Assembly (NCBI GenBank): GCA_964519305.1
Contig: CAZFHY010000001.1
Location: forward strand, 550,318-605,389
Direction of reading: 5' to 3'
Length of the DNA stretch: 55,072 nucleotides
Source of the DNA: Candidatus Undinarchaeota archaeon
GTDB lineage: Archaea; SpSt-1190; JASMDC01
Shown here: positions 6,074 through 55,072 of the stretch, piece by piece
How positions within the stretch are numbered: the first letter of the stretch is position 1
Layout: each line of letters opens with the position of its first letter
The notes under the pieces: generated by a model
The model's input: only the letters and a program-made list of their open reading frames with translations
What the model was told of the DNA's origin: nothing
The model's database searches: none
Position numbers and translations under genes: made by a program

Positions 6074-6098
6074 GCTCCCGTAACACGGGACCGTCCGC

Positions 6099-6257: not shown

Positions 6258-6310
6258 AGCACCACATCGTCGCCTCGGGCTTAAATACCTTTTGCGAGCC
6301 GCGAAGGCCT

Positions 6311-10223: not shown

Positions 10224-10256
10224 CCCGGACCTTCCTGAACGAGGACTGTGATCCCT

Positions 10257-11037: not shown

Positions 11038-11050
11038 GAGGAGAAGCACT

Positions 11051-12878: not shown

Positions 12879-12901
12879 CGGTCGAGGATTGCACTGGTAG
12901 G

Positions 12902-12909
12902 TATTTAAT
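12902..12909. promoter_or_regulatory. Bidirectional TATA box (nadE / asnB-like)
   Basis: TATTTAAT centred about 27 nt from both start codons (12878 and 12932). Confidence 0.6.
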
Positions 12910-12931
12910 CGTTGTCCCCTGATGACCACTG

Positions 12932-20200: not shown

Positions 20201-21009
20201 AGGCATCGACCGCCCGATCGGACGGTCGTGCCTGCGCACTTGGCCAGGCAAGGATTGGCATAGGTGATCCAGTCCTCCCCGCACACAGTTGCCGTCACGG
20301 CAGGGCATTGGCACGATGCGCAGAGCTGGTCCCGCCCAGCCTCAGCAGCAGCGGCGTCCTCATCACTGAGAGGCACGATACAGCTTGTCTCCAACGGGAT
20401 GAAGCTCAGGGCGATCAGGTTGTCCCTGGCGTGGGGTGGGATGTGGATCTCATAAGTATCCTTGTTCAGGAGGTCCGCCGATAGTGGTTTGATAAGCTCG
20501 TGAGCAAGAGCTACGCTCTTGAGCCGGTCCTTCTCGCCAGCGGACAGTGCCGCGAGGGTCGCCGGGCCAGGCCTGCCCAGTCCGGGCGCAGGTATCTTGC
20601 GGTAAGCGAGCTCGAGTATGTCCACCTCGCCCTTCACGTCCGCAGTTACCCGCAACACCAGGACGAGCCCGCTATCGAGCGTCGTCCGGTAATAGACGTT
20701 GACGGTTTTGACACCCGTCCCGTCCACGTCCCTGACGAAGGCGCGCGAGATGCTCGGTTCGACGCTAGCGAGGTCGATCCCAGCATCATTTAGGGATGAG
20801 AAGAAGGCCTTCATGATTCCGTTATTGGCAAGGCTTTCCACCAAGGCAGTGCGCTGGCTTGCAGGCACCACCTGTGCTTCAGGTCGCTGAGCGAGCACCT
20901 TTGCCCGGTTCTCCTTGACCAGGTCAAGGAGATTCCCGGCAGTGGCGCAGGAAACGACCAATATTATCGTCAACAGGATTACGAAAGTCCTACCCATGTC
21001 TAATCCCAA
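17299..21009 (-). CDS. Giant secreted Cys-rich protein with two Kazal-type domains
   Basis: Signal peptide; VCGEDWITYANPCLAKC and PVCGSDGVTYPTACDAAC; CxxxC helical repeats; CxxDxDC modules; no C-terminal anchor. Confidence 0.88.
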   Translation of the reverse strand: MGLDMGRTFVILLTIILVVSCATAGNLLDLVKENRAKVLAQRPEAQVVPASQRTALVESLANNGIMKAFFSSLNDAGIDLASVEPSISRAFVRDVDGTGVKTVNVYYRTTLDSGLVLVLRVTADVKGEVDILELAYRKIPAPGLGRPGPATLAALSAGEKDRLKSVALAHELIKPLSADLLNKDTYEIHIPPHARDNLIALSFIPLETSCIVPLSDEDAAAAEAGRDQLCASCQCPAVTATVCGEDWITYANPCLAKCAGTTVRSGGRCLTQCPEYGTILVLVDVSDWSVKEVYFREARAEVFGPVIACEPDSALSLENSRTMEAVVHTLDDIALELVRYKAHDIADKVRAQARELTGSFGVADECTTNEDCSFSSCSCSCGPTSDDDLDCLRSCSAVHTCVCKDGVCMNDEPKCVCPDLFDPVCGSDGVTYPTACDAACAGADVAHQGSCPDAGCIGANTFLVQQDSLAKVGNDLVAKIVGCQGIAGPLADSSAVPVSMGRDWAEFRLHILELPQPWLTSDCERRCRDGAAFSRTVCETECALASSECKESCRDAGTAAITPCIAACLPDLNVECDTLCNATLLPSLGVAEHRTLSRGVPITYLGYELTLESIDADSRTASLQVKDPEARILTFTPDYDDADARDYGPFSVLVAAGVTRLADASADIVLAPAVDDVCMEHCRLFPPPRYDKCMTALCRTACEADSDLQTLCADACADPDGWADQGLRDDACANHATFAACMAQRCMETCQDDLDKPAMCAKDCKTPFAGLSAYGDYATARTACVAAGGDVQECLQSKCTTACTAVLDVGERCRDVCGTIKGWEDYGGIDEGRNACAGTDNDYQACMVGACTGICTGHTALADQCQQSCTSPAAWKVMDDYEQNDVNCRIKEQGSFAACTTACNARTAVWRSSCADRCLRAATLYSIRTCKDTCQATSVEAVGTCVTECASTDPDGVTACKAACGTVEDVRKTGCLAGCKGPTEACAVAREKGDEDMLPAEGACTDDIAVLHTCKALVRFKGEGLEDCPPGDARCGLTKTTTLVRAGVDCERTYLDDAYLDPGFCRRTSDCVRQPGCCECDVPRFVNRFSRRPVVCEGTCACTTPPDIAAQRWAPSCVGGECTAEAVSPAVYCETDTDCVHADACCDPEAAACINHRYDEVEDCTGIVCMKPDAAPTSCLCVANKCISQAVTTAPDPPDEHYSLYGSAASADAVCGDGLCVPGEDGLACSEDCAIG

Positions 21010-39815: not shown

Positions 39816-40610
39816 GTGGACCTGCAGTTCCGGGCTCTCTCACGAACGAGACCACGCGATCCTGTCCTTGTAGAGGGCCTTCCCGGCATCGGGAACATAG
39901 GGCTCATCACCGTCGACTACCTCATCGACCATCTAAAGGCCCGACCCTTCGCCGAGCTGTACTCACGCCATTTCCCTCCGGTCGCCATCCTCGACGATGA
40001 CGACCAAGCGAGCCTCCCTTCTAACGAACTCTATATCCACCGCCGGAAAGGTGGCGATATCCTCTTCCTTCGAGGCGACACCCAGGCCATAACGGTAGAA
40101 GGTCAGAATGCAGTCGCACGTGGCATCATCGATACATGCCACACTCTAGGTGTCCGTCGGGTGGTGACGGTGGGAGGCTTCTACACGGATCCTGGCGAGA
40201 TGAAGGGCGGCCCGAAGATACTCGTTGCGACATCGTCCGCTGAGGTCCGTTCCGTTATAGCTGCTAGCGGGCTGGCTGGACGCGTGGAGTTCCAGTCCGA
40301 CCACGGGGGCGGCACCATCCTCGGCGCCAACGGATTGCTGCTTGGATTCGCCCACCTTCATGAGATCGAGGGACTATCTATTATGGTCCAAACACTCCAT
40401 AAGGACGAGTACGGGTTCGACCTGGACGCGAGCTGCTTGGCGATCGACGCCCTCTCCCGCCTCCTGGATTTCCCCTGCACTCCAAAGGACCTGGCCCGGG
40501 ACATGGCCGCTGTCTCAGACGAGATATCCGAGTCGGCACTGGGACCGCGTCACAGTATTCTCAATGCCCTTACCAAGGCACCCGAGGAGGACGACTTCTA
40601 TGTCAGATGA
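39816..40610 (+). CDS. PAC2 family proteasome assembly chaperone
   Basis: EGLPGIGNIG, HFPP, GDTQ, TVGG, GANGLLLG motifs; GTG 39816. Confidence 0.88.
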   Translation: MDLQFRALSRTRPRDPVLVEGLPGIGNIGLITVDYLIDHLKARPFAELYSRHFPPVAILDDDDQASLPSNELYIHRRKGGDILFLRGDTQAITVEGQNAVARGIIDTCHTLGVRRVVTVGGFYTDPGEMKGGPKILVATSSAEVRSVIAASGLAGRVEFQSDHGGGTILGANGLLLGFAHLHEIEGLSIMVQTLHKDEYGFDLDASCLAIDALSRLLDFPCTPKDLARDMAAVSDEISESALGPRHSILNALTKAPEEDDFYVR

Positions 40611-41319
40611 CACCTTGGACGATAGACCTTCGGTATCCATAGTCATCCCCTGCCACAACGAGGAGCGGAACGTGGAACGGGCAGTGACCGAGACCTTGGG
40701 ATCGCTGGGCGGCCTTGAACTAGAGGTCCTCGTGGAGGAGGACGGGAGCACTGACCGGACCGCCGAGATCGCACGGTCGCTCGCCGAGGGTGATCCCCGG
40801 ATCCGGGTGTTGTCCTTCCCGGAGGAGCGGTTGGGTAAGGGTGGTGGATTCGCCCGGGCCACGGGAGAAGCGACAAATGACATCATCGTGCTCATGGACG
40901 CTGACCTGGCCGTCCATCCCCGGGAAGTACTGCGGGCGTTGGAACGGATGCAGGAGGGCGTCTCCATGGTGATCGGCTCACGGGAGGTCGCCGGCTCAAA
41001 AAGGGTAGTGGACCAGAGCCCAGTCCGTCGCGTCGCTGGCAAGGTGTTCTCCCTCCTGGTGCGCACGATGTTCTGGCTCCCGTTCCACGACCTTCAGTGC
41101 GGGTTCAAGGTCATGCGCCGAGAGGTCATCGAGTCGGTCACCCTTACGCACCTTGGATGGGAGTTCGACACCGAGCTCATCTGGAAGGCCCGAAAGGCCG
41201 GATTCACAGTGGAGGAGATGGGGGTCCACTGGAGCGAGGGCGGGGACTCACGGTTGCGTCTATACCCTGATGCGTTCAATATGCTGTGGGGGCTCATCCT
41301 CCTCAGACTGGGGAGATGA
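40600..41319 (+). CDS. GT2 glycosyltransferase (polyprenol-phosphate sugar synthase-like)
   Basis: IPCHNEE, EDGSTDRT, GKGG, MDAD, IGSR, DLQCGFK, FDTE motifs. Confidence 0.92.
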   Translation: MSDDTLDDRPSVSIVIPCHNEERNVERAVTETLGSLGGLELEVLVEEDGSTDRTAEIARSLAEGDPRIRVLSFPEERLGKGGGFARATGEATNDIIVLMDADLAVHPREVLRALERMQEGVSMVIGSREVAGSKRVVDQSPVRRVAGKVFSLLVRTMFWLPFHDLQCGFKVMRREVIESVTLTHLGWEFDTELIWKARKAGFTVEEMGVHWSEGGDSRLRLYPDAFNMLWGLILLRLGR

Positions 41320-43368: not shown

Positions 43369-43566
43369 ATGGACCTCTCTAAACCGTACTCGAAGCTCGC
43401 TCTTTTGTACATCCTCGCCCTCACAATCCTCTTCTGGCTCGGATTCCCCATGAGCATCCTTGCCATCCTCGTGATCGTGTGGATCGTGTACTCCATCGAG
43501 TTAATGGAGAGCCTTGAGAAGGAAGGGAAGAAGAGCAAGGTGAAGCAGGGGCTCGACGAGGACTAG
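43369..43566 (+). CDS. Small membrane protein (65 aa)
   Basis: SD GGGGTGA; hydrophobic hairpin followed by a charged tail. Confidence 0.7.
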   Translation: MDLSKPYSKLALLYILALTILFWLGFPMSILAILVIVWIVYSIELMESLEKEGKKSKVKQGLDED

Positions 43567-45365
43567 ATCCTGCTGAATGGGTGGTGATGGAGCCACCTCC
43601 ACCGGGGACGTGCGCGGATAAGGATCTCATCGACCGGTACGCAATAGAGCTCGTCCTCGACACCGGTGGGTGTGCACTGGAGCACATTCCCGCCCTGGAC
43701 CGTCACATAGGTCATGGTGGGTGTGAAACCAAAGGGGAATATCTGGACACGGAAAACACGCGGTGGCAGGCGGAGCCCGGCCTTCCCCTCGGCGGTCGTC
43801 CAGTAATCGAACCGTGTCATACCCTCGCCCTCGATAGAAATCCCTTGAGAAGGCAGCACTCGAACGTGCGTGCGAGGGATAGGTCCACCATCGGGACCGA
43901 CAACACGTAGTGGGACAGTTATCACTTCGTTGAAAATGTGGTCAGTCAGTCCATCCTGGTCCACCCTGAGCAGATGGCAGCTCGGGCACGAAGCCAGCGA
44001 GACACGTTCGACGAATGGCTGGTCTTCCAGGATCGGTACGGGCCCGTGAGAGAACACCCATCGTGCCCCATAACCGAGCGTGCGCACAAGGGTTATGTTA
44101 TCGTCAGGTACCACATGCTCGGCGAACGATCCGGTGAAGAGGGCGATCTCCCTGAAGAAGGTAGGGGAGAGGATGATGCCCTCGGGATTATCGAGCTCAT
44201 TGAGCTCTGTCAGTATGCCCTGGTTGGTGCGCCAGATGTCCTCCCGGGCATCGGTATGAGGGTCGGCGGGGACCGTAAGGACACACCATCCGACCAATCC
44301 CGCCACCACGACAGCAGTGAGCTTGGGATCGCTACGTACCGCACGACGGACGCCCACCAGTGCCAGCGCCACGAGAGGCAGGAGTATGGTGACCACGAAC
44401 TTCCAACGGAAAAGGACCGGTGTGTATACCGCGAACACAAGAAGAGGAGCAGCGGCCCATGCCACAAGGAGTGGTACGGCCTCCGGCCGTTCGCCCTCGT
44501 CCCTTGACTTGAGCGCGATGCCAAGTGCGGCCAGCGCGACGATCGGCCAGCCTGCGAATCCGGGGAGGGTCCAGAAGGGTTCATGCTCGCCCCCGACCCC
44601 CCACTCCTCGGCCTGTGTGCGACCGGTCTCCTGCATCACCTTCAGGAAGATGGGAAGGCCGTTGGCGTAGAGGTACGCCGACCAGAGGAGCTGGCCCGCC
44701 ACGGCACCCGCGACGAACATGGAGAGAACATGGACCTCTCTGTCAACAGTACGTCCGCGGGCCCGGCGCCAGGCGCTGAGGAGTGCGAGGGAGAGCAGGC
44801 AGGGGCCGTAGTTGAGCTTGGTGAGCATCCCTAGGAAGGCCAACAGGAAACCCCGGCGAGCGGCCTGTCGATTACCGTCCAGAGCCTTGAGATAGAGAAC
44901 GTGGGTGGCCGCGTACAGGAAGCAGATCATGGCGGGGTGGAGCACAAGTCGTGCATACGAGATGAAAGCGGGATGGAAGGCGAGCACAGTGATCGTCGCC
45001 AGGGCCGTCCGCCTGTCCAGGAGCGAACGGAGCAGTAGGTAGTGGAGTGCCAGGGCCATACCAGCGAACCCCGCCACTACCAGATGGGAGGCCCAGAGTA
45101 TATCGCCTATGAACACGGTCACGGCAGCGATTACCGTAAAGAAACCGGGAGGATGGAGGATGAATACCTTGCCCAGAAGGCGTGGTACACCATCGACCAG
45201 GAGTGAGCGGGCAACGAGCATGTCCCGGTAGGCATCGTGCGCGGTCGTCGAGTCGAACGCCTCGAGCGAGGCGACGGGCACGAGCTCCGCGTGGTCCCAT
45301 CCTATAGCGTACCACGTGGTGGCGAGCAGCACGAGCACCAGTGCTACCCGGTCCTCGGCCTCCAC
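43563..45365 (-). CDS. GT-C (family 39 / PMT_2-like) glycosyltransferase with C-terminal soluble domain
   Basis: HDAY...A, HPPGF, FHPAFI, GMLTK motifs and many TM helices; start GTG 45365 (or ATG 45383). Confidence 0.82.
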   Translation of the reverse strand: MEAEDRVALVLVLLATTWYAIGWDHAELVPVASLEAFDSTTAHDAYRDMLVARSLLVDGVPRLLGKVFILHPPGFFTVIAAVTVFIGDILWASHLVVAGFAGMALALHYLLLRSLLDRRTALATITVLAFHPAFISYARLVLHPAMICFLYAATHVLYLKALDGNRQAARRGFLLAFLGMLTKLNYGPCLLSLALLSAWRRARGRTVDREVHVLSMFVAGAVAGQLLWSAYLYANGLPIFLKVMQETGRTQAEEWGVGGEHEPFWTLPGFAGWPIVALAALGIALKSRDEGERPEAVPLLVAWAAAPLLVFAVYTPVLFRWKFVVTILLPLVALALVGVRRAVRSDPKLTAVVVAGLVGWCVLTVPADPHTDAREDIWRTNQGILTELNELDNPEGIILSPTFFREIALFTGSFAEHVVPDDNITLVRTLGYGARWVFSHGPVPILEDQPFVERVSLASCPSCHLLRVDQDGLTDHIFNEVITVPLRVVGPDGGPIPRTHVRVLPSQGISIEGEGMTRFDYWTTAEGKAGLRLPPRVFRVQIFPFGFTPTMTYVTVQGGNVLQCTPTGVEDELYCVPVDEILIRARPRWRWLHHHPFSRI

Positions 45366-45387
45366 GGAGGATAGGATGAACATATGG

Positions 45388-45395
45388 TTTATAAA
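45388..45395. promoter_or_regulatory. Bidirectional TATA box (GT-C / pfkB)
   Basis: Palindromic TTTATAAA about 26 nt from GTG 45365 and GTG 45417. Confidence 0.65.
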
Positions 45396-45416
45396 GATGG
45401 GGACTCCCGGGGCGGT

Positions 45417-46289
45417 GTGGACGCCCCGGACATCGTGGTGGTCGGCCATCTCACGCACGACCGCATCGTACGCGGCTCGCAAGAGGACGCGTGCATGGGA
45501 GGCGTCCCCGCGCATTTCGGTCTGACCGTTGCCGCTCTTGGTCTGACAACAGGTGTGGTGACCACGGTGGGCCCCGACCTCGATCCGGAACACCTCCGTG
45601 TCCTGCACGCTGCAGGTATCGACCTCACAGGAGTCCACATAGGTCAGGCGCCCACGACGACGTTCGTGAACATCTACGACGGAGGACATCGGATTCAGGA
45701 GTGTCCCGCCGTCGCTGACGGTATCGGTCCTGATGATGTACCGGCCGTATATGAGAAAGCCCGCGCCATCCACCTTGGACCGCTCATGGGCGAGATAGAT
45801 CCTGCGGTGGTCGACCGGTTCCCCAGTGCGTTGATATCAATGGACGTTCAGGGGCTTGTGCGTCGACGTGATGGTCCACGGGTCCTGTCACAGTCCCTCG
45901 ATCACGATACACTCCCTCGACGGCTCGACGTGATCAAGCTCGGTGAGGACGAGCTTGAGCTGGCCACGGGTGTCACTGACGTAGTGGAGGGTTCGGAGAT
46001 CGCGGTTGAGCTCGGGGCCCGCATATCCATCGTCACCCTGGGCGGCCGTGGTTCGCACGTGTACGACGGACGACACCACGACATCCCCGCTTTCCCGGTC
46101 GAAGAGGTGGACCCCACCGGTGCTGGTGACGCCTACATGGCCGGTTTCCTGGACGCGCTCCTCGCGGAGCGTGAAGTGGCTGATTGCGGCCGGTTCGCCG
46201 CCGCATGCGGTGCTTTGTGCGTTACTAGCGTGGGCTCGGGCTTCGCGCATTCCCGCAAGGAGGTGGAGCTGCTCGCATGGGCGACATGA
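45417..46289 (+). CDS. PfkB/ribokinase family carbohydrate kinase
   Basis: GHLTHD, GG, VTLGGRG, VDPTGAGDAY motifs. Confidence 0.92.
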   Translation: MDAPDIVVVGHLTHDRIVRGSQEDACMGGVPAHFGLTVAALGLTTGVVTTVGPDLDPEHLRVLHAAGIDLTGVHIGQAPTTTFVNIYDGGHRIQECPAVADGIGPDDVPAVYEKARAIHLGPLMGEIDPAVVDRFPSALISMDVQGLVRRRDGPRVLSQSLDHDTLPRRLDVIKLGEDELELATGVTDVVEGSEIAVELGARISIVTLGGRGSHVYDGRHHDIPAFPVEEVDPTGAGDAYMAGFLDALLAEREVADCGRFAAACGALCVTSVGSGFAHSRKEVELLAWAT

Positions 46290-47299
46290 GCCGTCTCCGG
46301 CCAATTGGACTGGTCATCCTGGCCTTCCTGATATACCACGTGGGCGTGGGCGAGCTCGTGGCACGCCTGCAGGCCGCAGACGTCGGATTGTTCCTGGCGG
46401 GATTCGCCATCCTCATCATATCAGGCCTCGTATTCCTCGTCCGGTGGCAGGTGCTCCTTCGCGGTATCGGTTACACCATACCTTGGCGGTCCGCCTATGA
46501 GATCACGCTCCTGGGTCTGTTCTCCAATCTCGTCACCCCCGGACGGCTCGGGGACATCCCCGTCCGCGCCTTCTTCCTCAAGCGGCGAGAAGGCATTCCG
46601 GTCAAGGACGGCCTCGCGACTACTTCGGGGGACCGCTATGTCGATATCATGTTCCTCATGGTCGTCGGCCTCGTCTCCTTCTGGCTCCTGACGGGGACCG
46701 CCGAGATCGCGACGCTCCAAGGGGCAGGTATGGCACAAGTACGCTCGGCCGTCGCGGTCGTGCTCCTCCTGATGGCGGCCGTACCGGCGATCGCCCTCAC
46801 CCGCACCGCGTTCTTCATCGGACTGCTCAGGCGTGTGCTACCTGAGCGCGCAGGCCCACACCTCGACACAGCTGAGGAGGCCGTTCCCCGCCTCGTGGAC
46901 AACCTCCGGACATTCCTTCACGGCCCCTCCCTGGCCGCCCTCATCGTGTGCACACCGGCCATGTGGATCCTGTACGCGTTATCGTTCCACATATATCTCC
47001 TCTCCTTCGGTGAGACGGCCGACCCGTGGCTCGTGCTCCCGGCGTTCTTCGTGGCCTATCTCTTCGGTCTGATGAGCATGGTCCCCGGTGGCATCGGTAC
47101 CTCGGACCTAGGCGTTGTGGCCATCCTGGCCTCGGCCGGGATCGACCGCTCGGCTGCGCTCATCGCGTCCATCGCGGTGAAGGTCACGAACCTCATTTAC
47201 GTCGGGTGCCTTTGCCTGCTCATACCTGACCGGGCGGCCATCGAGGAGGCCGCTACCGTGACAGAGGAAGTGCGAGAAGAACAAGAGGATGACGAGTAG
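46286..47299 (+). CDS. Lysylphosphatidylglycerol synthase TM / UPF0104 flippase-like protein
   Basis: RWQ, NLVTPGRLGD, DRYVD, PGGIG motifs; ATGA overlap with the pfkB stop. Confidence 0.88.
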   Translation: MSRLRPIGLVILAFLIYHVGVGELVARLQAADVGLFLAGFAILIISGLVFLVRWQVLLRGIGYTIPWRSAYEITLLGLFSNLVTPGRLGDIPVRAFFLKRREGIPVKDGLATTSGDRYVDIMFLMVVGLVSFWLLTGTAEIATLQGAGMAQVRSAVAVVLLLMAAVPAIALTRTAFFIGLLRRVLPERAGPHLDTAEEAVPRLVDNLRTFLHGPSLAALIVCTPAMWILYALSFHIYLLSFGETADPWLVLPAFFVAYLFGLMSMVPGGIGTSDLGVVAILASAGIDRSAALIASIAVKVTNLIYVGCLCLLIPDRAAIEEAATVTEEVREEQEDDE

Positions 47300-47362
47300 A
47301 AACATCCCCCCTCCAGTTCTTGTTCGTTCCAGAGATAGTTATATAACATTGTCAAGGGCCTA

Positions 47363-50300
47363 GTGCCCTCTGCCCCTGACAAGGGCATGCGGGATAGAAT
47401 GGGTAGTGTGAGAACATTGGTGTTTTTATCTAGAAGGAGCACCTCCGTAGCATTAGCGTGCCTGATAATCGTCCAGATTGCGCTCTCTGCAATGCTCCTT
47501 GCCCATAAGGCCCCTGAATGGGGCCTGGGTGAATGCTCCATCCTAAAGAACGCACAGCTCATGCTAGGACACAATCCCGGAGCGCTCGCCGCTAAGGGTG
47601 CTGCCCTTGCAGGCAACGCAGCTCTCATCCTGCTCGTCGCAGCGGTCCTCCGCGCAACGGGCTCAAGGAATGGCGCAATCCTTGCTGCCACGCTCCTCGC
47701 TGCTGCGCCCGCGGCCCTGCGCGGACCTTTCCTCTCAATAGGCGTCGGTCCCTTGTCCACCGGGCTGCTAATGCTCGCTGCGCTTCTGGTTTCCCTGAAC
47801 CGGGAGAGCAGCGCTCGATTGCGGAGCGATCTTCTCACCGGGGCCATGATCGGTCTTGGGCTTGTACGCTACAGATGGTTCGGCGCCCTTCTCCTGGGAC
47901 TCGTCTTCGCCCGGTACAGGCGCGGTGATGGTGGATGGTGGCGTCCTGCTGCTGTTGCGACTGTGGTCGCGCTCATCCTTGGTGCGCAAGGTGCTGTGAC
48001 GTTCATCAATCCCACGCTAACCGACAACGGTCCGGGCGGGGGGATGACCACCATCCTGCCGCCCACTGCAGCGGTAATGCTCCTGCTCGTGACAGCTGCC
48101 GCGTTAGCGGGTCTCCTACGCCCACAGGCCGGGACCACGGGTGAGCTCGCCGTAGCGGCGGGAGTCACCGGGATGATCGTACTGGTCATATCCCTTGGTA
48201 CGGCCGTTGATCCTATTCTGGTGAAGGAGGACCTGGCGCTGGCCTGGCTTATCCTCGTGCCTACTGCGGTCATCGGATTCGAGAGCCTCGTCCATCAGCC
48301 AGGTGATAAGATGCTCGCTCTTATTGCCGTGGCGGCGCTCGGTGTCGGGGACATCCTTCCACTCCCACTGGATTCGTGGCAGGGAATGCCCGTGTGCAGG
48401 GAGGTAAAGGAAGGATTCCTTGAGTGGGGATGGTCCACACAAGGTGGGACGAATTGCCCCGACGGCTCGACACCCTGGGAGGACTGCTTCTTCCGAGCAG
48501 GCCGTGATGTCACATGGGAGGGTGGTGATCCAATTCTCCCCGACGGGCTTTCAAGACCGGCCGAACACATCTACGCGCTCGGTGTCGGGGAGGGGCTCGC
48601 AGAGCGCCTGGGAACAGGTCGTGATAGCGAGGTCGCACGACTGTGCAGTGAGCTAGGACCTGAGCTAGAGGGAACATGTACTGCGGGCATAGGGTCCCGT
48701 TCGACAGCCGAGCTCATGGAGGAAAAGGCCCCGATCGTCACACCTTGCAGTGGGCTGGACGATAGACTGGGTGCCCTTTGCGCCCAAGGTCTTGGGGCCG
48801 GTATCCTTCTGAGGGCCCGGCGCCGAGGCATCCAGTTGGAGAACGGTATAGAGTTCTGTTCTCGTCTTCCTTCGGTGCATAGGGCGCACTGTATCAGAGG
48901 TTTCGCCCAGACACTGGGATTCACACGACGCGGGGCCAGTGATGTCGATCCCTCGAACTGGCGACATTGTATCGGACTGCCCGAGGACCACTATGTCCAG
49001 TGCATGGGAGGGCACGCGGCGAACTTCGGTTGGCCGGGCGAGTTGAGCCTCGAGAGCGGCATCAAGAGCTGTGTCAATCCGTTCCAGGAGCAGCACTCGA
49101 AGTTCTGCCTGGTGAACTTAGGCTGTTCCCTCGGATTCCACTTCAGCAGAGATACCCAGAGAGCATGGGACATCTGCAAGGGACTCCCGGACAATATCAT
49201 TGTCTATTGCGTGGAAGGGCTCGGTGATGGTATCGGTTTCGCGAATCCCGGGGACCTTACAAGCTCGGTGAAGGCATGCGAGGTACTCCCGATCGAACAC
49301 AGGTCCATCTGCTACCACCGGGTCGGAAACGACCTGGGGCTCTTCATGACGGACGATATACCAAGAGCGGTCGACCTCTGTACGAAGGCATCTGCGCGAG
49401 CAACGCCATACTGCTTGGAGGGTGCAGGTGAGGCCGTGGGATGGCCTACGGGGCCGAACATCACTGCATCGATGCTTGCATGCGAGGACTATCCTCCCGA
49501 ACTCAGGCACTACTGCCACTACGGTCTGTGCGAGAGCTATGGGTGCAAACTGGGGACGGATCCGGATGATCCCGTCGCTCTCTGGCACGAATTGCCCCCC
49601 GAAGGTAAACCGTTCTGCGCGGAAGGGCTCGGTGACAGCCTTGGATGGCGGTTCGGGTACAACGCGACCGATGCGATGGCCTTATGCGACTGGCTCCCCG
49701 AGGAGGACGACCGGGTACTGTGCTATCTCAATGTAGGGGATCGCATCCACTGGCGGTTCGGTAAGGGACCGGAGGCGGTCGAGCGATGCTTAGCGCTACC
49801 CCCCAAGAAATCTAATCCCTGCATGCGCGGGCTTGGACGCTTCGCGTCCTGGCAGTTCGGCTCCCTCCTTACCGGCAGAGAGAACACATGCGCGCACGAA
49901 CCGTTACAAGGAAGGCCTTTCTGTGCCATGATGTTCGGTCGGAACGTCCTGTTCAAGGAAGGAATGACGGCCGTAAAAGAAGCCTGTGACGGGCTGGCCG
50001 AGATGGCTCCCCATTGCTGGCGAGGTGTAGGCTGGGCGCTTGGCTGGCTCGTGAGGTCCGAAGGCCTACCGAAGACGGTCTGCACACAAGCAGGTGATCT
50101 TGCAGAATCCTGTCATAAAGGGATCTGTACGGGTCTTTCTGCCGTGCTCGGTGATACAGGGAAGGTGCTCGATACGGCGCAAGATCATGTCGAACGCGGG
50201 ACCTGCCTTCCCGGGATCGGTGCGGGTCTCGTCTGGTACGCTGATGACGACGCTGCAGTCGTTGCCGCGACGTGTGCAACCCTCCCTCTACCGGATGCGG

Positions 50301-50449
50301 ACGAATGCGCACAGGGCGCGGGTAAGGCCGTGGCCCAGGAATCTCTCTATCTTTATGGTACTACGGACAAGGCACGTGAATTCTGTGAAGCTATGAACAC
50401 GCCCCTGACCGAGGCCTGTCTCGCGGGGATTGGGAACGCATCGGTGTGA
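47363..50449 (+). CDS. Multi-TM N-terminus fused to ~18 Cys-paired helical repeats (paralog A)
   Basis: About 330 aa of TM helices, then C-x9-11-C-x2-G-x-G repeats; true start may be 47399 or 47408 by alignment to paralog B. Confidence 0.8.
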   Translation: MPSAPDKGMRDRMGSVRTLVFLSRRSTSVALACLIIVQIALSAMLLAHKAPEWGLGECSILKNAQLMLGHNPGALAAKGAALAGNAALILLVAAVLRATGSRNGAILAATLLAAAPAALRGPFLSIGVGPLSTGLLMLAALLVSLNRESSARLRSDLLTGAMIGLGLVRYRWFGALLLGLVFARYRRGDGGWWRPAAVATVVALILGAQGAVTFINPTLTDNGPGGGMTTILPPTAAVMLLLVTAAALAGLLRPQAGTTGELAVAAGVTGMIVLVISLGTAVDPILVKEDLALAWLILVPTAVIGFESLVHQPGDKMLALIAVAALGVGDILPLPLDSWQGMPVCREVKEGFLEWGWSTQGGTNCPDGSTPWEDCFFRAGRDVTWEGGDPILPDGLSRPAEHIYALGVGEGLAERLGTGRDSEVARLCSELGPELEGTCTAGIGSRSTAELMEEKAPIVTPCSGLDDRLGALCAQGLGAGILLRARRRGIQLENGIEFCSRLPSVHRAHCIRGFAQTLGFTRRGASDVDPSNWRHCIGLPEDHYVQCMGGHAANFGWPGELSLESGIKSCVNPFQEQHSKFCLVNLGCSLGFHFSRDTQRAWDICKGLPDNIIVYCVEGLGDGIGFANPGDLTSSVKACEVLPIEHRSICYHRVGNDLGLFMTDDIPRAVDLCTKASARATPYCLEGAGEAVGWPTGPNITASMLACEDYPPELRHYCHYGLCESYGCKLGTDPDDPVALWHELPPEGKPFCAEGLGDSLGWRFGYNATDAMALCDWLPEEDDRVLCYLNVGDRIHWRFGKGPEAVERCLALPPKKSNPCMRGLGRFASWQFGSLLTGRENTCAHEPLQGRPFCAMMFGRNVLFKEGMTAVKEACDGLAEMAPHCWRGVGWALGWLVRSEGLPKTVCTQAGDLAESCHKGICTGLSAVLGDTGKVLDTAQDHVERGTCLPGIGAGLVWYADDDAAVVAATCATLPLPDADECAQGAGKAVAQESLYLYGTTDKAREFCEAMNTPLTEACLAGIGNASV

Positions 50450-50490
50450 CCGAGCCTTTATAATTCTCCACCACGATAAGGACTGCCGTC

Positions 50491-53397
50491 GTGAGATACA
50501 TCGATACTCTATTGCGAACACGGACCATCATCTTACTGGTCTGTATGTTCACCGTCCAGGTCAGCCTCGCGGCCATCCTATTCTCCGAGTTTGGTTTGGG
50601 ACGGACGTGGATCGAATGCTCACTTGCACATATTGCCATGTTGGGACCGGCTGCACCCGTCACCCTCGGACCTCTGGTCGCAAAGGTCGGGGCCGTCGTT
50701 CTCGAGTGTGTCCTTCTCCTGGCCATCGGCGGCATCCTCATCACGCACGCGTCGTTCCGGGCTGCGATCGTGGGGACGGCCCTATTCGTCGCAACTCCTG
50801 AACCATTACGCAGACCGTTCCTCGTCCTTGGTGGCCCTGCAGCCCCATCATCGCTCTGGGCCGTCCTCGTCCTCTTCGCATACCTGGAATGGCGTAGAAC
50901 GAACGGGCGGAGGAACGCAGTTCTCCTGGGAGCTCTCGCGGGGGCCGGCGTGGCCTTTTCCACGGACCTGTTGCCCGTGCTCCTAGGCCTTGGGCTGGCG
51001 TACTTCCTGTCGCCCCTGGTCCGTCATCGAAGGTCCATCGTTGCAGCGCTCGTTATAATCAGTTGTCTCTTCCTACTGGCCGGCGAACGCGCTCAGGGGC
51101 AGGACACTCCCTTAGGCATCGCTGGGCATGTCCCTTCCATCCTCGCCATCATCCTCGTCCTGTCGGGGACGTTCATACCACTGATCTCACCTACCACGGG
51201 ACAAGGTAGCGAGCTCAACACTGCCGCGGGGGGAGCGGGTCTCATCCTGATAGCGACCTCGCTACTTTCGAGCTCGGTCACAGGGACGCTCGCTCTCGCC
51301 TGGATCATCCTCATCATTGCAGCTGCACCCTCCCTGACAAGACCGCCAGGCTCATTCCTCATCGGTTGTGTTGTCGTTGTTTGCCTCATTGACGGGCTCT
51401 ACCTTACAGACATCGCTGAGCAGAAGGACCTACACTCCCATCTTTGGGAGCAGTGCGTTCGCACTATCGCTCGGGCCGCTGCACGGGAAGGGATCGTACC
51501 TAGGATAGAGGGATTGCTCTCGAAGGACGCAGGCTACCACCTTGCCCTCGCATATGGTGAAGGACTGGCTGCCGGGGTCATCGACGCAAAGGAGCTCGTG
51601 CAACGCTGTGCCGTTCTGGGCTCCACGTCCGCGGAGGTATGCATCAAAGGTCTGGGATCAGGTACAGCACTACGCGTCTGGGAGGAACGGTCCATGACGG
51701 TCACACCCTGCGGTCCGCTCAATGGTGCATTGCGAACACACTGTCTTGAAGGCGTCGGGGCCGGGCTCTTCCTGGAGACGCGACGACAGGGGACCTCCCT
51801 TGAAGAGGGCATGGCGCTCTGTGCGCTCCTCCTCCCTCCGGACGTCCCCGTCTGCCTGAGGGGGTTCGGCCGTTCACTAGGTCACTCGCGCCCCACCCGT
51901 CCAGGAGAGATCCAATGGGACCGCTGCGCGCCCATCAGCGACCGCTATATCTATCACTGTTATTGGGGGCCAGCGGGGACATTTGGTTGGGAGATAGAAC
52001 CGACGGTCGAAGCGGCCATTGCCACTTGCATCGAACCCCATCCAGATAATCCATTGGAGACCAAGGTCTGTCTCACTAGGTTCGCGGGAGCAATGGGACT
52101 GCACCACCAGGGAGATACGGCCCGTGCCGTGTCCCTATGTGAAGAACTACCACCGCACACGATCTCCTACTGCCTTGAAGGGGTCAGTGACTACCTCGGA
52201 TGGTACCTTGTCGACGAACCCTCCCTTGGCCCCGGGGAGTGTGATCACTTCCCTCTGGAGAACCGGGGTGTATGCTACCAGATGCTAGGCAACGCCCTTG
52301 GCTGGTTCCACGTCGACCATCCCGAACTGGCGGTGGCCGCTTGTACCAGCCTCGTCGCCAAGGCCCGATCCCATTGCTACCAGGGACTGGGGGAAGCGTT
52401 CGGCTGGGAGACGGCACCCGATGTGGCCGCGTCCATCGCACGATGCGGCACCTTGCCCGTTGACGGCCGTCCATACTGCAATTTCGGACTGGGGGAGAGC
52501 TACGGGTGCAAGTACAACTCCCAGCTCGAGCGATCGGCCACGCTATGCGCTGCCCAGGAATTTGAGGGGCTCCTTCACTCCTCTGAGGGTTTTGGCTACA
52601 GCCAAGGATGGCAGTTCGGCCATGATCCTGTAGCGGCCATGGAGAGGTGTGACGTGCTCGCGGAGGGAGCTCCACGAGAGCTCTGTCGGCTCAGCGTCGG
52701 CGACCGTATTCTCTGGCAACATGGACATAGTCGCATAGATGCTATAGCCCTCTGTCGCACATTCCCTGAGGACCTCATGCTCACCTGTCTCAGGGGGCTC
52801 GGCAGGTACGATGGTTGGATGTTCGGAGCGGGGCTTACTGAACCCCGTGATATCTGCGCCGAAGAGCCCGCGGCCGGGAGGCCGTTCTGTGCTGAGATGT
52901 TCGGAAGGACCCTTGCTCTCAGGAACGGTTTCGACATGGCAGCTGCTGCATGCGATGGGCAGGACGAACAAACGCCTCACTGCTGGCGCGGTATCGGTTG
53001 GGCACTCGGCTGGATAGAGGGAGCGAGTGTATCCGCTGATGCATGTTCCTTGGCCGGCGGCCACAGGGAACAGTGCCTGGATGGCTTGTGCTCCGGGCGA
53101 ACCGCCGTCAAAGGTGTCGTCCTAGATGGGGGCCTCGATATGATTGAATGCGCTGTGGGGAGCGGAGCAGGCCTGTGGTGGCGGTATAACGGTGATGGGA
53201 TAAGAACGGCAGAGGACTGTTCATCGTTCCCTCCCGATGAGGCAGGAGCATGCTCTCAAGGAGCAGGTCTCGCTGCTGTCCGTGAGTCGCTCTATATGAC
53301 AGGAATCTCCACTGATGTCGAGTATATGTGCGAGACCATGGGGACGCTGATGGACGCATGCCTTATGGGCGTAGCGGAAGGCGTGCTTACTGAATGA
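50491..53397 (+). CDS. Multi-TM N-terminus fused to Cys-paired helical repeats (paralog B)
   Basis: Colinear with paralog A (ESYGCK, VGDRI, GRPFCA, PHCWRG.GWALGW, ESLY); TTTATAA box upstream. Confidence 0.82.
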   Translation: MRYIDTLLRTRTIILLVCMFTVQVSLAAILFSEFGLGRTWIECSLAHIAMLGPAAPVTLGPLVAKVGAVVLECVLLLAIGGILITHASFRAAIVGTALFVATPEPLRRPFLVLGGPAAPSSLWAVLVLFAYLEWRRTNGRRNAVLLGALAGAGVAFSTDLLPVLLGLGLAYFLSPLVRHRRSIVAALVIISCLFLLAGERAQGQDTPLGIAGHVPSILAIILVLSGTFIPLISPTTGQGSELNTAAGGAGLILIATSLLSSSVTGTLALAWIILIIAAAPSLTRPPGSFLIGCVVVVCLIDGLYLTDIAEQKDLHSHLWEQCVRTIARAAAREGIVPRIEGLLSKDAGYHLALAYGEGLAAGVIDAKELVQRCAVLGSTSAEVCIKGLGSGTALRVWEERSMTVTPCGPLNGALRTHCLEGVGAGLFLETRRQGTSLEEGMALCALLLPPDVPVCLRGFGRSLGHSRPTRPGEIQWDRCAPISDRYIYHCYWGPAGTFGWEIEPTVEAAIATCIEPHPDNPLETKVCLTRFAGAMGLHHQGDTARAVSLCEELPPHTISYCLEGVSDYLGWYLVDEPSLGPGECDHFPLENRGVCYQMLGNALGWFHVDHPELAVAACTSLVAKARSHCYQGLGEAFGWETAPDVAASIARCGTLPVDGRPYCNFGLGESYGCKYNSQLERSATLCAAQEFEGLLHSSEGFGYSQGWQFGHDPVAAMERCDVLAEGAPRELCRLSVGDRILWQHGHSRIDAIALCRTFPEDLMLTCLRGLGRYDGWMFGAGLTEPRDICAEEPAAGRPFCAEMFGRTLALRNGFDMAAAACDGQDEQTPHCWRGIGWALGWIEGASVSADACSLAGGHREQCLDGLCSGRTAVKGVVLDGGLDMIECAVGSGAGLWWRYNGDGIRTAEDCSSFPPDEAGACSQGAGLAAVRESLYMTGISTDVEYMCETMGTLMDACLMGVAEGVLTE

Positions 53398-55072
53398 TGC
53401 CTGACCACTCACTATAGGCCATCACCAGTCCGGCCTGCTCGAGCTCCGTGTCACCTGACAGGAACAGACCCGCCAGGGTGAGCGGTTCCTTTTCTATCAT
53501 AGCCTGCTCAACTACATCCATTGTCCGTCTCTCTAGCTCCGCAAGCTCTACACGGTCCAGCGACTCGATGTCAACGGGAGTGTCCCTTACACTGATGAAG
53601 TGGGTTAGAGCCAGAGCGGCCCGACGCACGGACATTCCCGCATGTACGGCCTCACCCAGTCGCGGATCGTCTCCACGCTCGGGTTGTGCTCCGAGCACAC
53701 GCCGCAGGTCCTTCTCCACAGCGTTCCGGCGGGCCTGTGTAAGAGATGTCAACTGATCCGACATATCCTCGCTGACAAGGGCCATCAGATGGTCGATGGC
53801 GGCCTTTGCCTCCAGAAGCCCACATCCTGCGGCCAAGGCCACACGACCGACAGCTACATGTCCTGCCGCGATATCCGAGGGTGCTGCTTTTGCGAGGATC
53901 GTGTCATAACGCTTCTCCTCCCGTCCCTCTGCCGATATCAACGTGGCAGGATCCTGAGGTGTGGCGGCCCAGATCACCAGTGCACGTGCTCGGGATAGCA
54001 TCCTGATGCCTATGCCGAGGTTCGCGGCCACATGGAGAAGATCCGCGTCCGTAACCTCTCCGCCGGTGGCCTCCAGTAGGCGGGCCACGTTCCGCTCAAG
54101 TGAGGTACGCTGACGCGTCGGGAGGTCGGTCGGGTCCAGTGGTTCTGTGTCCTCTAAGGCAGCTTGGATGAAAGGCCCGAGAATACGGGCTGTAGGGAGG
54201 TCCAGCTCCAGGTCGAACACTGAATTATCGACCTCGGGGAGGGATCCTGTCGACCGGGCGAACCTAGCGGCCTTTACAGAGGCACGGTCAAGGCGTTGGG
54301 CGTCGTCGCTGGACAGTGTATCAAGATCCATTGAGTCAGGTGGCGTGACGAGATCGAGGAACCGGTCCCTGATCCTGTCAACCGCGTCAAGGCGGACCTT
54401 TGCGAAAGCGAAGCACTCTAGACGTGACGGGGCACGACCCTGTTCGTGGACGAACCAGAGCATGCGTAGATGGTTGAGACCTGCGGGCGTGGCAATCCCA
54501 CCCAAGAACAGGTTCCGGAGGGCATGGGGAGTGAGCGCCTCGGGGAGCGGGTGGCCCTTTATTGCATCGAGTATGCCCGACAGGTCGATATGCGGATAGG
54601 CGCCCTCGATCCATGTGATGAAGGTCTTCTTGCGTACGAGCTTTTCCGCCTTATCCAGGTCCTTGCTCACCACAGGCGCTAGCTTGGCAAGAGACGCATA
54701 GCGCTCCTTGCCGATTGAAAATGGTCTGGGGGCGGGCTTGTGTGCCAAATCGAACGTGCATAGAACGAGCATATCGATGTCCACGTCCGCCGCGAAAGCA
54801 GGTTCACGACCTGCCATAGCGATCGCTTTGACATTGCCCTCACGCACCCATCGCTTGATGGCCTCAGGCCATTTACCAGCTGACTCCCAGGCAGCCGCTG
54901 CATCATCGTACCGTTCAAGGGCCTCAAGACACCGGGCCTGTCCCGCAGGATCATCATGTTTGTTATAGCAGGCAAGGGCCTTCTCGAACGAACCCTCGCG
55001 TTCGAACCGGCGAGCCCGGTCCGCGTCCCCTTCGAGGGAGCCCTCATCTTCAGGGGCTTCTTCCTCTTCGGG
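53387..55072 (-). CDS. Large hypothetical protein, 5'-truncated by the window edge; TPR/alpha-solenoid-like segment plus C-terminal repeats
   Basis: The frame of 53387..54847 stays open to 55072: PEEEEAPEDE...ARRFEREGSFEKALACY...ARCLEALERYDDAAAAWESAGKWPEAIKRW. Confidence 0.75.
   Translation of the reverse strand, partial: PEEEEAPEDEGSLEGDADRARRFEREGSFEKALACYNKHDDPAGQARCLEALERYDDAAAAWESAGKWPEAIKRWVREGNVKAIAMAGREPAFAADVDIDMLVLCTFDLAHKPAPRPFSIGKERYASLAKLAPVVSKDLDKAEKLVRKKTFITWIEGAYPHIDLSGILDAIKGHPLPEALTPHALRNLFLGGIATPAGLNHLRMLWFVHEQGRAPSRLECFAFAKVRLDAVDRIRDRFLDLVTPPDSMDLDTLSSDDAQRLDRASVKAARFARSTGSLPEVDNSVFDLELDLPTARILGPFIQAALEDTEPLDPTDLPTRQRTSLERNVARLLEATGGEVTDADLLHVAANLGIGIRMLSRARALVIWAATPQDPATLISAEGREEKRYDTILAKAAPSDIAAGHVAVGRVALAAGCGLLEAKAAIDHLMALVSEDMSDQLTSLTQARRNAVEKDLRRVLGAQPERGDDPRLGEAVHAGMSVRRAALALTHFISVRDTPVDIESLDRVELAELERRTMDVVEQAMIEKEPLTLAGLFLSGDTELEQAGLVMAYSEWSGIIQ

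Follow-up and report, generated by a model that had tools for sequence, protein, structure and literature searches.

Tandem archaeal membrane proteins with a predicted GT-C fold and cysteine-paired helical-repeat solenoids are putative glycosyltransferases of a TMTC/TMEM260-like design

What function is served by two adjacent archaeal proteins that each join a hydrophobic N-terminal third to a long array of cysteine-paired repeats? The two genes were found in a 55,072-nucleotide stretch of DNA, analysed as a whole and called the window here, and their host is an uncultured marine archaeon. Gene A (47363..50449, + strand) encodes 1028 residues and gene B (50491..53397, + strand) encodes 968, both with the GTG starts as listed. 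A sequence-only reading of the window had described two colinear paralogs of about 1000 residues, and both open reading frames are indeed found at these coordinates and align in a single colinear BLASTP alignment of 1034 columns (33% identity, E 3e-156); each protein contains 43 cysteines. The true start of A is more likely to be an ATG at 47387 or 47399 than the GTG, because B and the relative P0001 align from about residue 15 of A and a TATA-like box is found at 47339-47346. Another such box (50456-50463) lies ~28 nt before the GTG of B. Contigs from all four metagenome runs examined, which represent two studies and possibly the source samples, carry the locus without indels. Eight single-nucleotide variants were seen there, all in B, and the four common to every run are synonymous third-position changes. 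On these grounds, A and B are real, intact genes under purifying selection.

The C-terminal portion of both proteins is composed of repeats. In A, residues 423-1028 (48629..50446, + strand) hold 18 cysteine-paired helical repeats of ~34 residues, and in B, residues 368-968 (51592..53394, + strand) hold 16 clear and two degenerate units. A hidden Markov model of the repeat, seeded with nine units of A and then iterated over both proteins, detects the 18 units of A at per-unit E-values of 3.4e-6 to 1.3e-14. The consensus of the 34 clear units, av..C..Lp...r..C..GlG..lGw..g.d, agrees with the motif C-x9-11-C-x2-G-x-G-x3-[GA]W and the roughly 17-18 repeats that had been read from the sequence. The Cys-x10-Cys pair is near-invariant, with 0.2 and 0.0 bits of entropy in the cysteine columns and 2.2-3.7 bits in most others. 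AlphaFold models each repeat of A as a short helix and a long helix, with block pLDDT mostly at 82-95 and dips at ~520-560 and 820-850. In the DSSP string of the model, 12 of 16 pairs have their first cysteine no more than two residues away from where the short helix ends, and all 16 have their second cysteine 3-9 residues inside the long helix; these positions make a disulfide within each repeat plausible. As modeled, the repeat domain is a confident all-alpha solenoid without a close solved relative. None of the 932 chains aligned with this part of the full-length model reached Z 8, and an ESM Atlas search with the domain returned unnamed clusters only. The best structural neighbors are the PC repeats of Rpn1/Rpn2, through a weak match to 9bw4_U (Z 7.5, rmsd 7.5, 228 aligned, model residues 519-834); these resemble the repeats of A and B in length and in the Gly-rich character of the long helix, but they are cytosolic, Cys-free and without sequence relation to them. 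The Sel1-like repeats of the Helicobacter Hcp proteins are helical hairpins, each with a cysteine pair thought to form an intra-repeat disulfide, and are likewise extracytoplasmic in setting; the Hcp proteins are small, soluble and not fused to a membrane enzyme. The repeats of A and B differ from them in spacing and repeat length, and match no Sel1 family of Pfam at E<=1.

The sequence-only reading also remarked that positions following the second cysteine vary, and it proposed a variable binding groove. The variation is present between repeats but not between orthologs, where these positions are 80-90% identical. A groove that varies from strain to strain is not supported by the pattern of conservation, as orthologs share 75-78% identity in the repeat domain against 52-71% in the membrane domain (75% and 55%, respectively, for A and P0001).

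The membrane domain of A covers residues 12-331 (47396..48355, + strand) with 11 predicted helices, and its homologous counterpart in B covers residues 1-310 (50491..51420, + strand). A juxtamembrane linker in A (residues 332-422; 48356..48628, + strand) contains a beta-hairpin (344-356) and two helices. Six Kyte-Doolittle stretches, some containing several helices, account for the hydrophobic N-terminal third. Neither protein matched any Pfam or NCBIfam family even at E<=1, including PMT_2 (PF13231), PMT (PF02366) and every glycosyltransferase model; a Pfam scan of P0001-P0004 gave no PMT_2 or PMT match, and searching PDB sequences with the own-family profile A1 gave none at E<=1. Evidence on the fold came from two AlphaFold models, whose alignments contained no recognizable glycosyltransferase or GT-C sequence. 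The full-length model of A was built from the 62 rows of alignment A1, with PMT_2-type relatives excluded (mean pLDDT 77.7), and a second model of residues 1-420 from nine own-family rows (mean pLDDT 59.4). Confidence in the membrane part is moderate, with 10-residue block means mostly at 55-87 in the full-length model and lower in loops. This model places 11 long helices and a short first-loop helix (55-67) in residues 12-331; members of the GT-C superfamily have 7-13 membrane helices and short helices in the first outer loop. When it was compared with 48,161 PDB representatives by VIA-align, the top 20 rows were all GT-C-fold proteins aligned over residues ~20-340, led by Pmt1-Pmt2 (6p2r_B; Z 15.8, rmsd 5.8, 316 aligned, model residues 20-342) and followed by STT3 (Z 13.7), PglB (13.7), ArnT (13.5) and Pmt4 (13.4), down to ALG6 (7.7), scores to be read with the caveat that this aligner can give a predominantly helical model a best Z of ~14 without a known relationship. 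Row 21 was an unrelated protein (Z 6.9, 56 aligned). The model of residues 1-420 returned the same GT-C top 20 at Z 15.8 to 7.0, and the first row outside the GT-C fold stood at Z 6.9 with 56-75 aligned residues for the two models. With the full-length model, Foldseek returned no GT-C protein, its matches being generic HEAT solenoids (karyopherins, CAND1; E 5e-5, TM-score 0.09-0.16). With the membrane-domain model it found nothing at E<=1e-3, although its best-ranked entries were AglB and ArnT (E 0.011-0.16). In a comparison of ESM features, residues 1-400 placed PMT_2/ArnT clusters first (0.94, 155 shared features), which we treat as a lead only. Based on the top-20 matches of two independent models, together with this language-model result and the profile-profile comparison described below, the models indicate that the membrane part of A and B has a GT-C fold too diverged for family databases to recognize, in keeping with the earlier suspicion of a degenerate GT-C. 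Short loops give a weak positive-inside signal (4 inside, 2 outside), so the predicted outward orientation rests on the fold match and the Cys-rich C-terminal domain.

A search with A by phmmer revealed the repeat in 85 representatives at E<=1e-3. PMT_2 matches at E<=0.01 were present in 7 of 31 relatives scanned, four of them above the Pfam cut-off, and a profile of the PMT_2-type relatives finds 19 clusters, 14 with a precomputed PF13231 assignment. It is through the repeat region that phmmer reaches these proteins from A (P0019, 9.2e-12; P0023, 4.4e-11). Exemplified by the unnamed metagenomic proteins P0019, P0033 and P0058 (620-685 residues; one labeled Nanoarchaeota, one labeled 'ArnT-like glycosyltransferase'), they share with A and B the Cys-x10-Cys-x2-G repeat (phmmer E down to ~1e-11), an identical domain order, an invariant first-loop Glu, often followed by Cys, and a Lys in helix 2. 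They differ in having ~6-7 repeats rather than 18 and a membrane domain that is recognized by Pfam PMT_2. Direct profile-profile comparison by hhalign of the own-family N-termini with 25 of PMT_2 type gave 86.8% at E 4.3e-6 over 161 columns, confined to helices 1-5, and 69% at E 4.3e-5 when 12 rows were used; controls with the flippase-like protein, a reversed profile and the neighboring GT-C gave E 0.22-0.39. In a tree, A and B group with their close relatives in a clade of their own, set apart by a long branch (100/100). A third gene of this genome belongs with the PMT_2-type fusions (99.8%, E 2e-30). The architecture, which the earlier reading did not recognize, is not unique to this genome: fusions of the repeat with a PMT_2-type domain recur in unnamed metagenomic proteins. 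The limited set of literature searched contained no description of a GT-C domain fused to cysteine-paired helical repeats. Homologues of residues 1-420 were limited to the source protein, P0001 and P0087, the identical three being returned with profile A1. No match to the query was found in 39 other relatives or in 15 other genomes of the phylum, several of which are only 72-90% complete; alignment A2 found only the congener among genome contigs, and none of 591 pattern matches of alignment A6 in metagenome contigs was confirmed.

If these proteins are enzymes, their first outer loop is where an acidic catalytic residue would be expected. In A, this loop contains the invariant E57-C58 (codons 47531-47536), accompanied by invariant K78 at the start of helix 2, P116, R120 and P122 in helix 3, and, in the linker, W372-E373-x-C375, R381 and G409-E410-G411. 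The equivalent invariant residues noted in B are E42-C43 (codons 50614-50619), K65, P103 and R107. Nine own-family rows with 25-40% overall identity retain E57, K78, R120, R194, E373, R381 and E410. The first-loop Glu is present in 6/6 own-family and 24/25 PMT_2-type sequences (the 25th has a gap), and the helix-2 Lys in 6/6 and 25/25. The GT-C hallmark at this site is described in the available text of PMC8698208 and PMC7801869 as Asp-Glu or Asp-Asp with an essential Asp; in the same texts, S. coelicolor Pmt is inactive as D113A or D113E and active as E114A, and ArnT D55 mutants are inactive. This canonical Asp is not present in A or B, where the invariant Glu is preceded by Gly (G56-E57) and Ile (I41-E42), respectively. 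Within the set of own-family proteins and the third gene, Asp-Glu occurs only in P0003 and the third gene, and hhalign aligns the invariant Glu with the Glu, not the Asp, of the third gene's DEC motif. An acidic residue before the Glu is also missing in 7 of the 24 PMT_2-type relatives that have a residue at this column (Q, R, M or S instead), and its absence is therefore normal for this clade. The first-loop Glu cannot be mapped onto ArnT or Pmt by sequence, since the PMT_2-type profile A5 found only viral VP2 (E 0.25) among PDB sequences. For the related case of TMEM260, the accessible part of 10.64898/2026.03.17.711096 reports that D52E retains about 20% activity and that the catalytic base resides in the luminal domain.

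A flippase-like membrane protein (46277..47299, + strand; LPG_synthase_TM E 7.3e-43; TIGR00374 flippase-like domain 1.2e-30) is encoded directly upstream of A and occupies the equal position in the congener. A pfkB-family sugar kinase gene (45384..46289, + strand), also kept in the congener, overlaps it by 13 nt. Divergently transcribed is a recognizable GT-C (43563..45773, - strand) with a PMT_2 match above cut-off (E 1.1e-07), a weak Agl23-like match and a CarboxypepD_reg-like C-terminus; considered as a relative of the A/B membrane domain, it showed no detectable relation (hhalign E 0.33). A GT2 glycosyltransferase (40342..41319, + strand; PF00535, 1e-30) is a candidate donor synthase, as its best NCBIfam neighbors, all below their cut-offs, are the polyprenyl-phosphate sugar synthases PgfS, AglJ, ArnC-type, PpgS and dolichyl-phosphate hexose transferase. 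The order pfkB, flippase-like gene, A and B, with the PMT_2 GT-C opposite, is conserved in the congener. Of the A-type gene, only a decayed remnant of 118 aa is left there, and the gene is thus dispensable in the congener. A related paralog exists there as two proteins, one a short combination of GT-C and repeats and the other a repeat protein with a single anchor.

The nearest design among characterized enzymes is that of TMTC1-4 and TMEM260, eukaryotic protein O-mannosyltransferases of the GT-C type that carry TPR domains in the lumen. The overall parallel with TMTC drawn in the sequence-only reading is a good one and extends to TMEM260, as both, in the available portions of PMC7801869 and 10.64898/2026.03.17.711096, have an N-terminal GT-C domain of ~11 helices and, after it, a domain of helical repeats that faces away from the cytoplasm. 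The resemblance is one of design, as A and B have no detectable sequence relation to these enzymes and no Rossmann-like domain, and their repeats are not TPRs (no Pfam match at E<=1) but ~18 Cys-paired units of one short and one long helix, in place of the five-helix TPR fold of TMEM260. They also have an x-Glu-Cys first-loop motif where, according to the portion of PMC7801869 available, TMTC and TMEM260 strictly conserve Asp-Asp; that portion also notes full-length prokaryotic GT-C+TPR homologues. The TPR domain of TMEM260 is described as sufficient for acceptor binding and recognition in the accessible part of 10.64898/2026.03.17.711096. With the PMT/ArnT/STT3-type enzymes (6P2R, 5F15, 6S7T, 5OGL, 3WAJ), A and B share the modeled membrane fold (Z 12.3-15.8, 260-316 residues) and an acidic residue in the first outer loop, but identity is 6-14% and they have no MIR domain, periplasmic alpha/beta domain or canonical Asp.

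We consider that A and B are probably divergent members of the GT-C class that act as extracytoplasmic lipid-linked-sugar glycosyltransferases, putative in activity and equipped with an acceptor-binding solenoid, and we place the probability of this reading at roughly 0.55. In this scheme, a polyprenyl-phosphate-linked sugar would be bound by the 11-helix domain on the outer side of the cytoplasmic membrane, by means of the invariant first-loop Glu (E57 in A and E42 in B) together with Lys and Arg residues at the outer ends of helices. The acceptor, either a surface protein or a glycan, would be positioned above the active site by the outward alpha-solenoid of ~600 residues, much as it is by the TPR domains of TMTC and TMEM260. 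A Cys-x10-Cys disulfide probably closes each of the ~18 repeats. From the context of the flippase-like gene and the GT2, we infer a polyprenyl-phosphate sugar donor; these two genes, the latter 6 kb upstream, would supply the flipped lipid-linked donor by a three-component logic of the kind described in the available text of PMC11127046. Counted against this reading are the failure of A and B to match any Pfam or NCBIfam glycosyltransferase, the lack of the essential Asp, a membrane domain that evolves faster than the repeats, the decay of the A-type gene in the congener, the moderate model confidence and the existence of non-catalytic GT-C folds, GPI-transamidase chains being among the matches of both models (Z 7.6-9.4).

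Several of these points would also suit a pseudo-enzyme, in which a non-catalytic GT-C fold binds a lipid or lipid-linked glycan and the solenoid serves as a scaffold or receptor for the recruitment of surface proteins or further glycosylation enzymes, comparable to the GT-C-fold subunit of GPI-transamidase. This explanation, which we regard as possible though somewhat unlikely, draws on the missing Asp that is essential in Pmt and ArnT (in the available text of PMC8698208), on the absent family matches, on the tighter constraint on the repeat domain and on the split paralog of the congener, which indicates that the solenoid can act as a separate subunit. It must contend with the invariance of E57, K78 and R120 at the expected active-site positions across paralogs only 25-40% identical, with the PMT_2-type relatives that likewise have no acidic residue before the Glu and, as far as the accessible part of 10.64898/2026.03.17.711096 describes it, with the residual activity of TMEM260 D52E and its luminal base. 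Should the proteins instead be surface adhesins or receptors, the target of the solenoid would be a partner cell, a particle or a ligand, and the membrane domain would mainly be an anchor or signal transmitter unrelated to glycosylation. The organism is labeled as a member of a DPANN order, and among the 85 relatives with the repeat, 47 show just one hydrophobic segment, at the N-terminus, both of which fit such a role; an 11-helix GT-C fold with invariant polar residues is nevertheless an improbable plain anchor, the flippase-like gene, another GT-C and the sugar kinase lie alongside in both congeners, and the repeat surface is conserved rather than diversifying, with only synonymous variants common to all four runs. 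We consider this very unlikely.

A further alternative keeps catalysis but changes the donor, casting A and B as oligosaccharyltransferase- or polymerase/ligase-like enzymes that use a diphosphate-linked oligosaccharide rather than a monophosphate-linked single sugar. STT3, PglB and AglB score near PMT and ArnT (Z 12.3-13.7), and Foldseek puts AglB first for the membrane-domain model (E 0.011), though the Z differences among the top rows lie within ~2 units and give the fold search no power to choose a donor type. The relatives at the sequence level are of PMT_2/ArnT type, not STT3, Pfam STT3 is not matched, and no soluble domain of the WWDXG type follows the membrane part; we give this alternative little chance. 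A more ambitious form of the glycosyltransferase reading, speculative and in our view distinctly unlikely, would make A and B the founders of a new GT-C family working as a paralog heterodimer like Pmt1-Pmt2. The Asp would have been given up, and catalysis would fall to the invariant Glu and to invariant acidic residues of the linker in W372-E373-x-C375, which a C58-C375 disulfide would tether to the first loop, and in G409-E410-G411, analogous to the luminal base of TMEM260. Two 18-repeat disulfide-stapled solenoids would then form a clamp or ruler dedicated to glycosylating the organism's giant cysteine-rich surface fibers.

GT-C enzymes construct and decorate the cell surface in every domain of life, but the divergence of their membrane domains past the reach of sequence comparison makes new families hard to discover. 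In this case, a GT-C fold missed by Pfam and NCBIfam was exposed through structure prediction and a common unnamed Cys-paired repeat, which ties A and B to PMT_2 proteins of DPANN-type archaea. Our findings highlight an undescribed variant of the TMTC/TMEM260 design of GT-C plus helical repeats that is known from animals. If A and B are active, they would be the founders of a glycosyltransferase family that is new and whose first-loop motif is unusual, a Glu without an Asp, and the combination of a transferase with a helical-repeat acceptor clamp would have arisen independently in archaea, with a disulfide-stabilized repeat that suits the cell exterior. The repeat is a candidate for a Pfam family of its own and might serve as a scaffold for stable binding proteins that work outside the cell, and the locus offers a concrete starting point for studying surface glycosylation in an unusual archaeon that has a large genome and is related to the small-genome Undinarchaeota.

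Genes A and B lie on the + strand at 47363..50449 (1028 aa) and 50491..53397 (968 aa), 41 nt apart, where the sequence-only reading had placed them, and its view of them as colinear paralogs agrees with BLASTP, which aligns the products end to end over 1034 columns with 33% identity (E 3e-156); each contains 43 cysteines. A repeat HMM, started from nine A units and then refined by iteration over both proteins, assigns 18 units to residues 423-1028 of A and 16 clear plus two degenerate units to residues 368-968 of B. The consensus of the 34 clear units, av..C..Lp...r..C..GlG..lGw..g.d, with both Cys columns nearly invariant, is the same motif as had been read from the sequence. Contigs spanning 46200-53500 come from four metagenome runs in two studies, possibly of the source samples; they show no indels and eight SNVs, all within B, of which the four common to all runs are synonymous third-position changes; both A and B look like functional genes. 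Four linked synonymous SNVs fall within 51912-51987 (76 nt, gene B), and a second 136-nt contig variant of this stretch, at roughly a third to half of the depth in each of the four runs, indicates two co-existing strains. A TATA-like box, TTATATAA (47339-47346), stands 24 nt ahead of the listed GTG of A, a position that makes an ATG at 47387 or 47399 the likelier start; another, TTTATAAT (50456-50463), stands ~28 nt ahead of the GTG of B, a gene that may be leaderless. Both calls follow the promoter consensus.

Neither protein is matched in Pfam or NCBIfam, even at E<=1, the family profile found no PDB sequence, and the TPR, Sel1 and HEAT models of a Pfam scan do not match the repeats; the literature searched contained no description of a GT-C (integral-membrane glycosyltransferase) domain joined to Cys-paired repeats. 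HMMER over 1.84 billion representatives returned 85 proteins at E<=1e-3, of which no more than 5 reached E<=1e-30, and the membrane domain alone retrieved just two other clusters, P0001 and P0087. Among the genomes searched, genes of the A/B type were found only in the window's own and in that of the congener (2 of the 41 relatives, the window's genome included; 2 of 17 across the phylum). These genomes measure 3.63 Mb (42 contigs, 99.8% complete, 4.3% contamination) and ~3.8 Mb, respectively, and the 15 other species representatives in the phylum 0.6-1.2 Mb. Undinarchaeota are small-genome DPANN according to PMC7414124; a member with a three- to fivefold larger genome would be notable, or else its placement or binning may be at fault.

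The full-length AlphaFold model of A was built from a 62-sequence alignment; to keep the fold from being copied from known GT-C proteins, all relatives whose N-terminus is multi-helix and PMT_2-type had been removed beforehand. The mean pLDDT of the model is 77.7, and 10-residue block means are mostly 82-95 across the repeats and mostly 55-87 across the membrane helices, with lower values in loops. Foldseek with the whole model returned only generic HEAT solenoids. When VIA-align was run against 48,161 PDB representatives, the top 20 rows were all GT-C-fold proteins, led by Pmt1-Pmt2 (Z 15.8, 316 residues aligned, model 20-342), STT3 (13.7), PglB (13.7), ArnT (13.5) and Pmt4 (13.4), though helical models can reach Z ~14 through arrangement alone. 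The other rows comprised ALG9, ALG12, AglB, AftA, EmbA, AftB, GPI mannosyltransferase I, DPY19, ALG3, GPI-transamidase chains, AftD, PimE and ALG6 (Z 7.7), below which came an unrelated 56-residue match (Z 6.9). A second model of residues 1-420, made from nine own-family sequences at lower confidence (mean pLDDT 59.4), gave an identical top 20 (Z 15.8 to 7.0), and Foldseek ranked AglB and ArnT first for it, not significantly. The argument draws on the family identity of all 20 rows, near-complete coverage of the domain and replication; by these models, the membrane domain has a GT-C fold, as the sequence-only reading had supposed.

Sequence comparison leads to the same class of protein. The part common to A and its 85 distant matches is the repeat only; by hydropathy, 47 of these have one N-terminal hydrophobic segment, one has three, 21 (many of them fragments) have none, and 16, including three close family members, have four or more. 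Among 31 relatives scanned with Pfam, PMT_2 was found in seven at E<=0.01, above cut-off in four of the seven. A profile of the PMT_2-type relatives, unnamed GT-C proteins with the same repeat, found 19 clusters, 14 with precomputed PF13231, including one JGI entry named ArnT-like glycosyltransferase and one NCBI hypothetical protein from a Nanoarchaeota MAG. In hhalign, A/B-family N-termini matched 12 PMT_2-type N-termini at 69% (E 4.3e-5) and 25 of them at 86.8% (E 4.3e-6; 161 columns, helices 1-5), against E 0.22-0.39 for three controls; a language-model search also ranked PMT_2/ArnT clusters first (0.94), as a lead only. The closest true relatives of A and B are these unnamed PMT_2 and Cys-repeat proteins of DPANN-type archaea. 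A third gene of the window's genome (contig C3, 2770..5322 of locus L019; 850 aa) encodes a membrane domain that falls firmly within the PMT_2-type set (99.8%, E 2e-30) and has the first-loop motif EDEC; its product also has about five Cys-pair repeats and, at the C-terminus, a WD40 beta-propeller (5.8e-20). Upstream lie GT2 (1.6e-32) and radical-SAM genes, and at 5289..6866 of the same locus a 525-aa protein, with no Pfam match, combines a signal/anchor with a Thr/Pro-rich linker and a Cys-rich repeat of another kind (roughly C-x-x-I-x6-R-x2-C).

In a tree of the shared region, the whole family separates from the PMT_2-type proteins as a clade (100/100), comprising an A-type (A, P0001, P0087), its sister C-type (89/93; the congener gene G001_A1 and the relative P0002), a B-type (B and its 75% identical congener ortholog) and, apart, the relative P0003. 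The congener's A slot holds a C-type gene of 689 aa that ends after ~7 repeats; the repeats that come next are encoded by a second gene behind it (261 aa), which has a single membrane anchor of its own. Behind this split pair, a different paralog from A, comes a 118-aa ORF that is 60% identical to A 416-502 and is the remnant of a true A ortholog (whole arrangement, 9590..12964 of locus L007 on congener contig C73). P0002 and P0003 stop at the same point as the C-type gene, so the short form is natural, and in the split pair enzyme and solenoid have parted by natural fission. Together with the A remnant, this indicates that the solenoid can be provided either in cis or in trans and that A-type genes come and go.

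The congener also keeps the gene order of PMT_2 GT-C (opposite strand), pfkB kinase, flippase-like protein (LPG_synthase_TM, E 7.3e-43), A and B. A GT2 gene at 40342..41319 is most like polyprenyl-phosphate sugar synthases, all below their cut-offs; extracytoplasmic glycosylation, as outlined in PMC11127046, has three components, namely synthase, flippase and GT-C. Elsewhere in the window, a 1236-aa protein (17299..21009, -) has Kazal-type protease-inhibitor domains (9.8e-09), unusual for an archaeon, and adjoins a 981-aa protein with NPCBM_assoc/CARDB domains (14344..17289, -), and a convergent ORF of 561+ aa (53387..55072, -) overlaps the end of B by 11 nt, with faint TPR matches at its N-terminal end only and no family.

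In the model, a loop joins the two helices of each repeat unit, a short one of ~8 residues and a long one of ~16-20 residues. Cys1 lies within two residues of the short-helix end in 12 of 16 pairs, and Cys2 sits 3-9 residues inside the long helix in all 16 (position 6 in 11), which fits a predicted staple spanning the loop between them. Among solved structures, the PC-repeat toroids of proteasome Rpn2/Rpn1 come nearest (Z 7.5, rmsd 7.5, 228 aligned), and none of the 932 chains aligned to the repeat domain reached Z 8. The variable binding groove first proposed, in the sense of variation from strain to strain, is not supported: identity is 75% in the repeat and 55% in the membrane domain between A and P0001, and 78% and 71% between B and its congener ortholog. 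Positions after Cys2 differ among repeats yet are 80-90% identical between orthologs (inter-Cys loop, 60-70%), so every repeat has its own conserved identity, which points to a specific, conserved putative binding surface rather than a diversifying one.

Nine own-family sequences (25-54% identity) all keep E57-C58 in the first loop, K78 where helix 2 begins, P116, R120, P122 and R194, and, in the linker, W372-E373-x-C375, R381 and G409-E410-G411 (numbering of A). Of the 25 PMT_2-type relatives, 24 have the first-loop Glu, the remaining one being gapped at that column, and all 25 have the Lys; this Glu follows an acidic residue in 17 of them and Q, R, M or S in 7 others. The motif is Gly-Glu in A and Ile-Glu in B. 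The canonical GT-C motif, according to PMC8698208, is Asp-Glu or Asp-Asp with Asp as the critical residue: S. coelicolor Pmt is inactive as D113A or D113E and active as E114A, and D55 of ArnT is essential. PMC7801869 describes the first Asp as common to all GT-C hits. For TMEM260, a eukaryotic GT-C enzyme, 10.64898/2026.03.17.711096 gives ~20% retained activity for D52E and a base located in the luminal domain. With the E57/E42-type Glu kept, the canonical Asp missing and D52E partly active, the acid is present but non-canonical, and catalysis by A and B is putative.

In the most likely reading, which we consider somewhat probable (about 0.55), A and B are divergent glycosyltransferases of the GT-C class and hold the acceptor with their disulfide-stapled solenoid. 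A non-catalytic scaffold would share the GT-C fold and sit with the missing Asp, less readily with the kept Glu and Lys, and seems rather unlikely. A receptor or adhesin, to be set beside the conserved repeat surface and the GT-C fold alike, is improbable, and we give similarly little credence to an OST- or ligase-like enzyme using a diphosphate donor, STT3, PglB and AglB being among the structural matches behind Pmt1-Pmt2. As had been anticipated for TMTC, A and B share their overall design with the eukaryotic TMTC and TMEM260 enzymes, with their luminal TPR domains, but fall outside both on repeat type, which is not TPR, and on first-loop motif. The two proteins likely represent a GT-C family not described before, and their presumably extracellular repeat is likely new as well.
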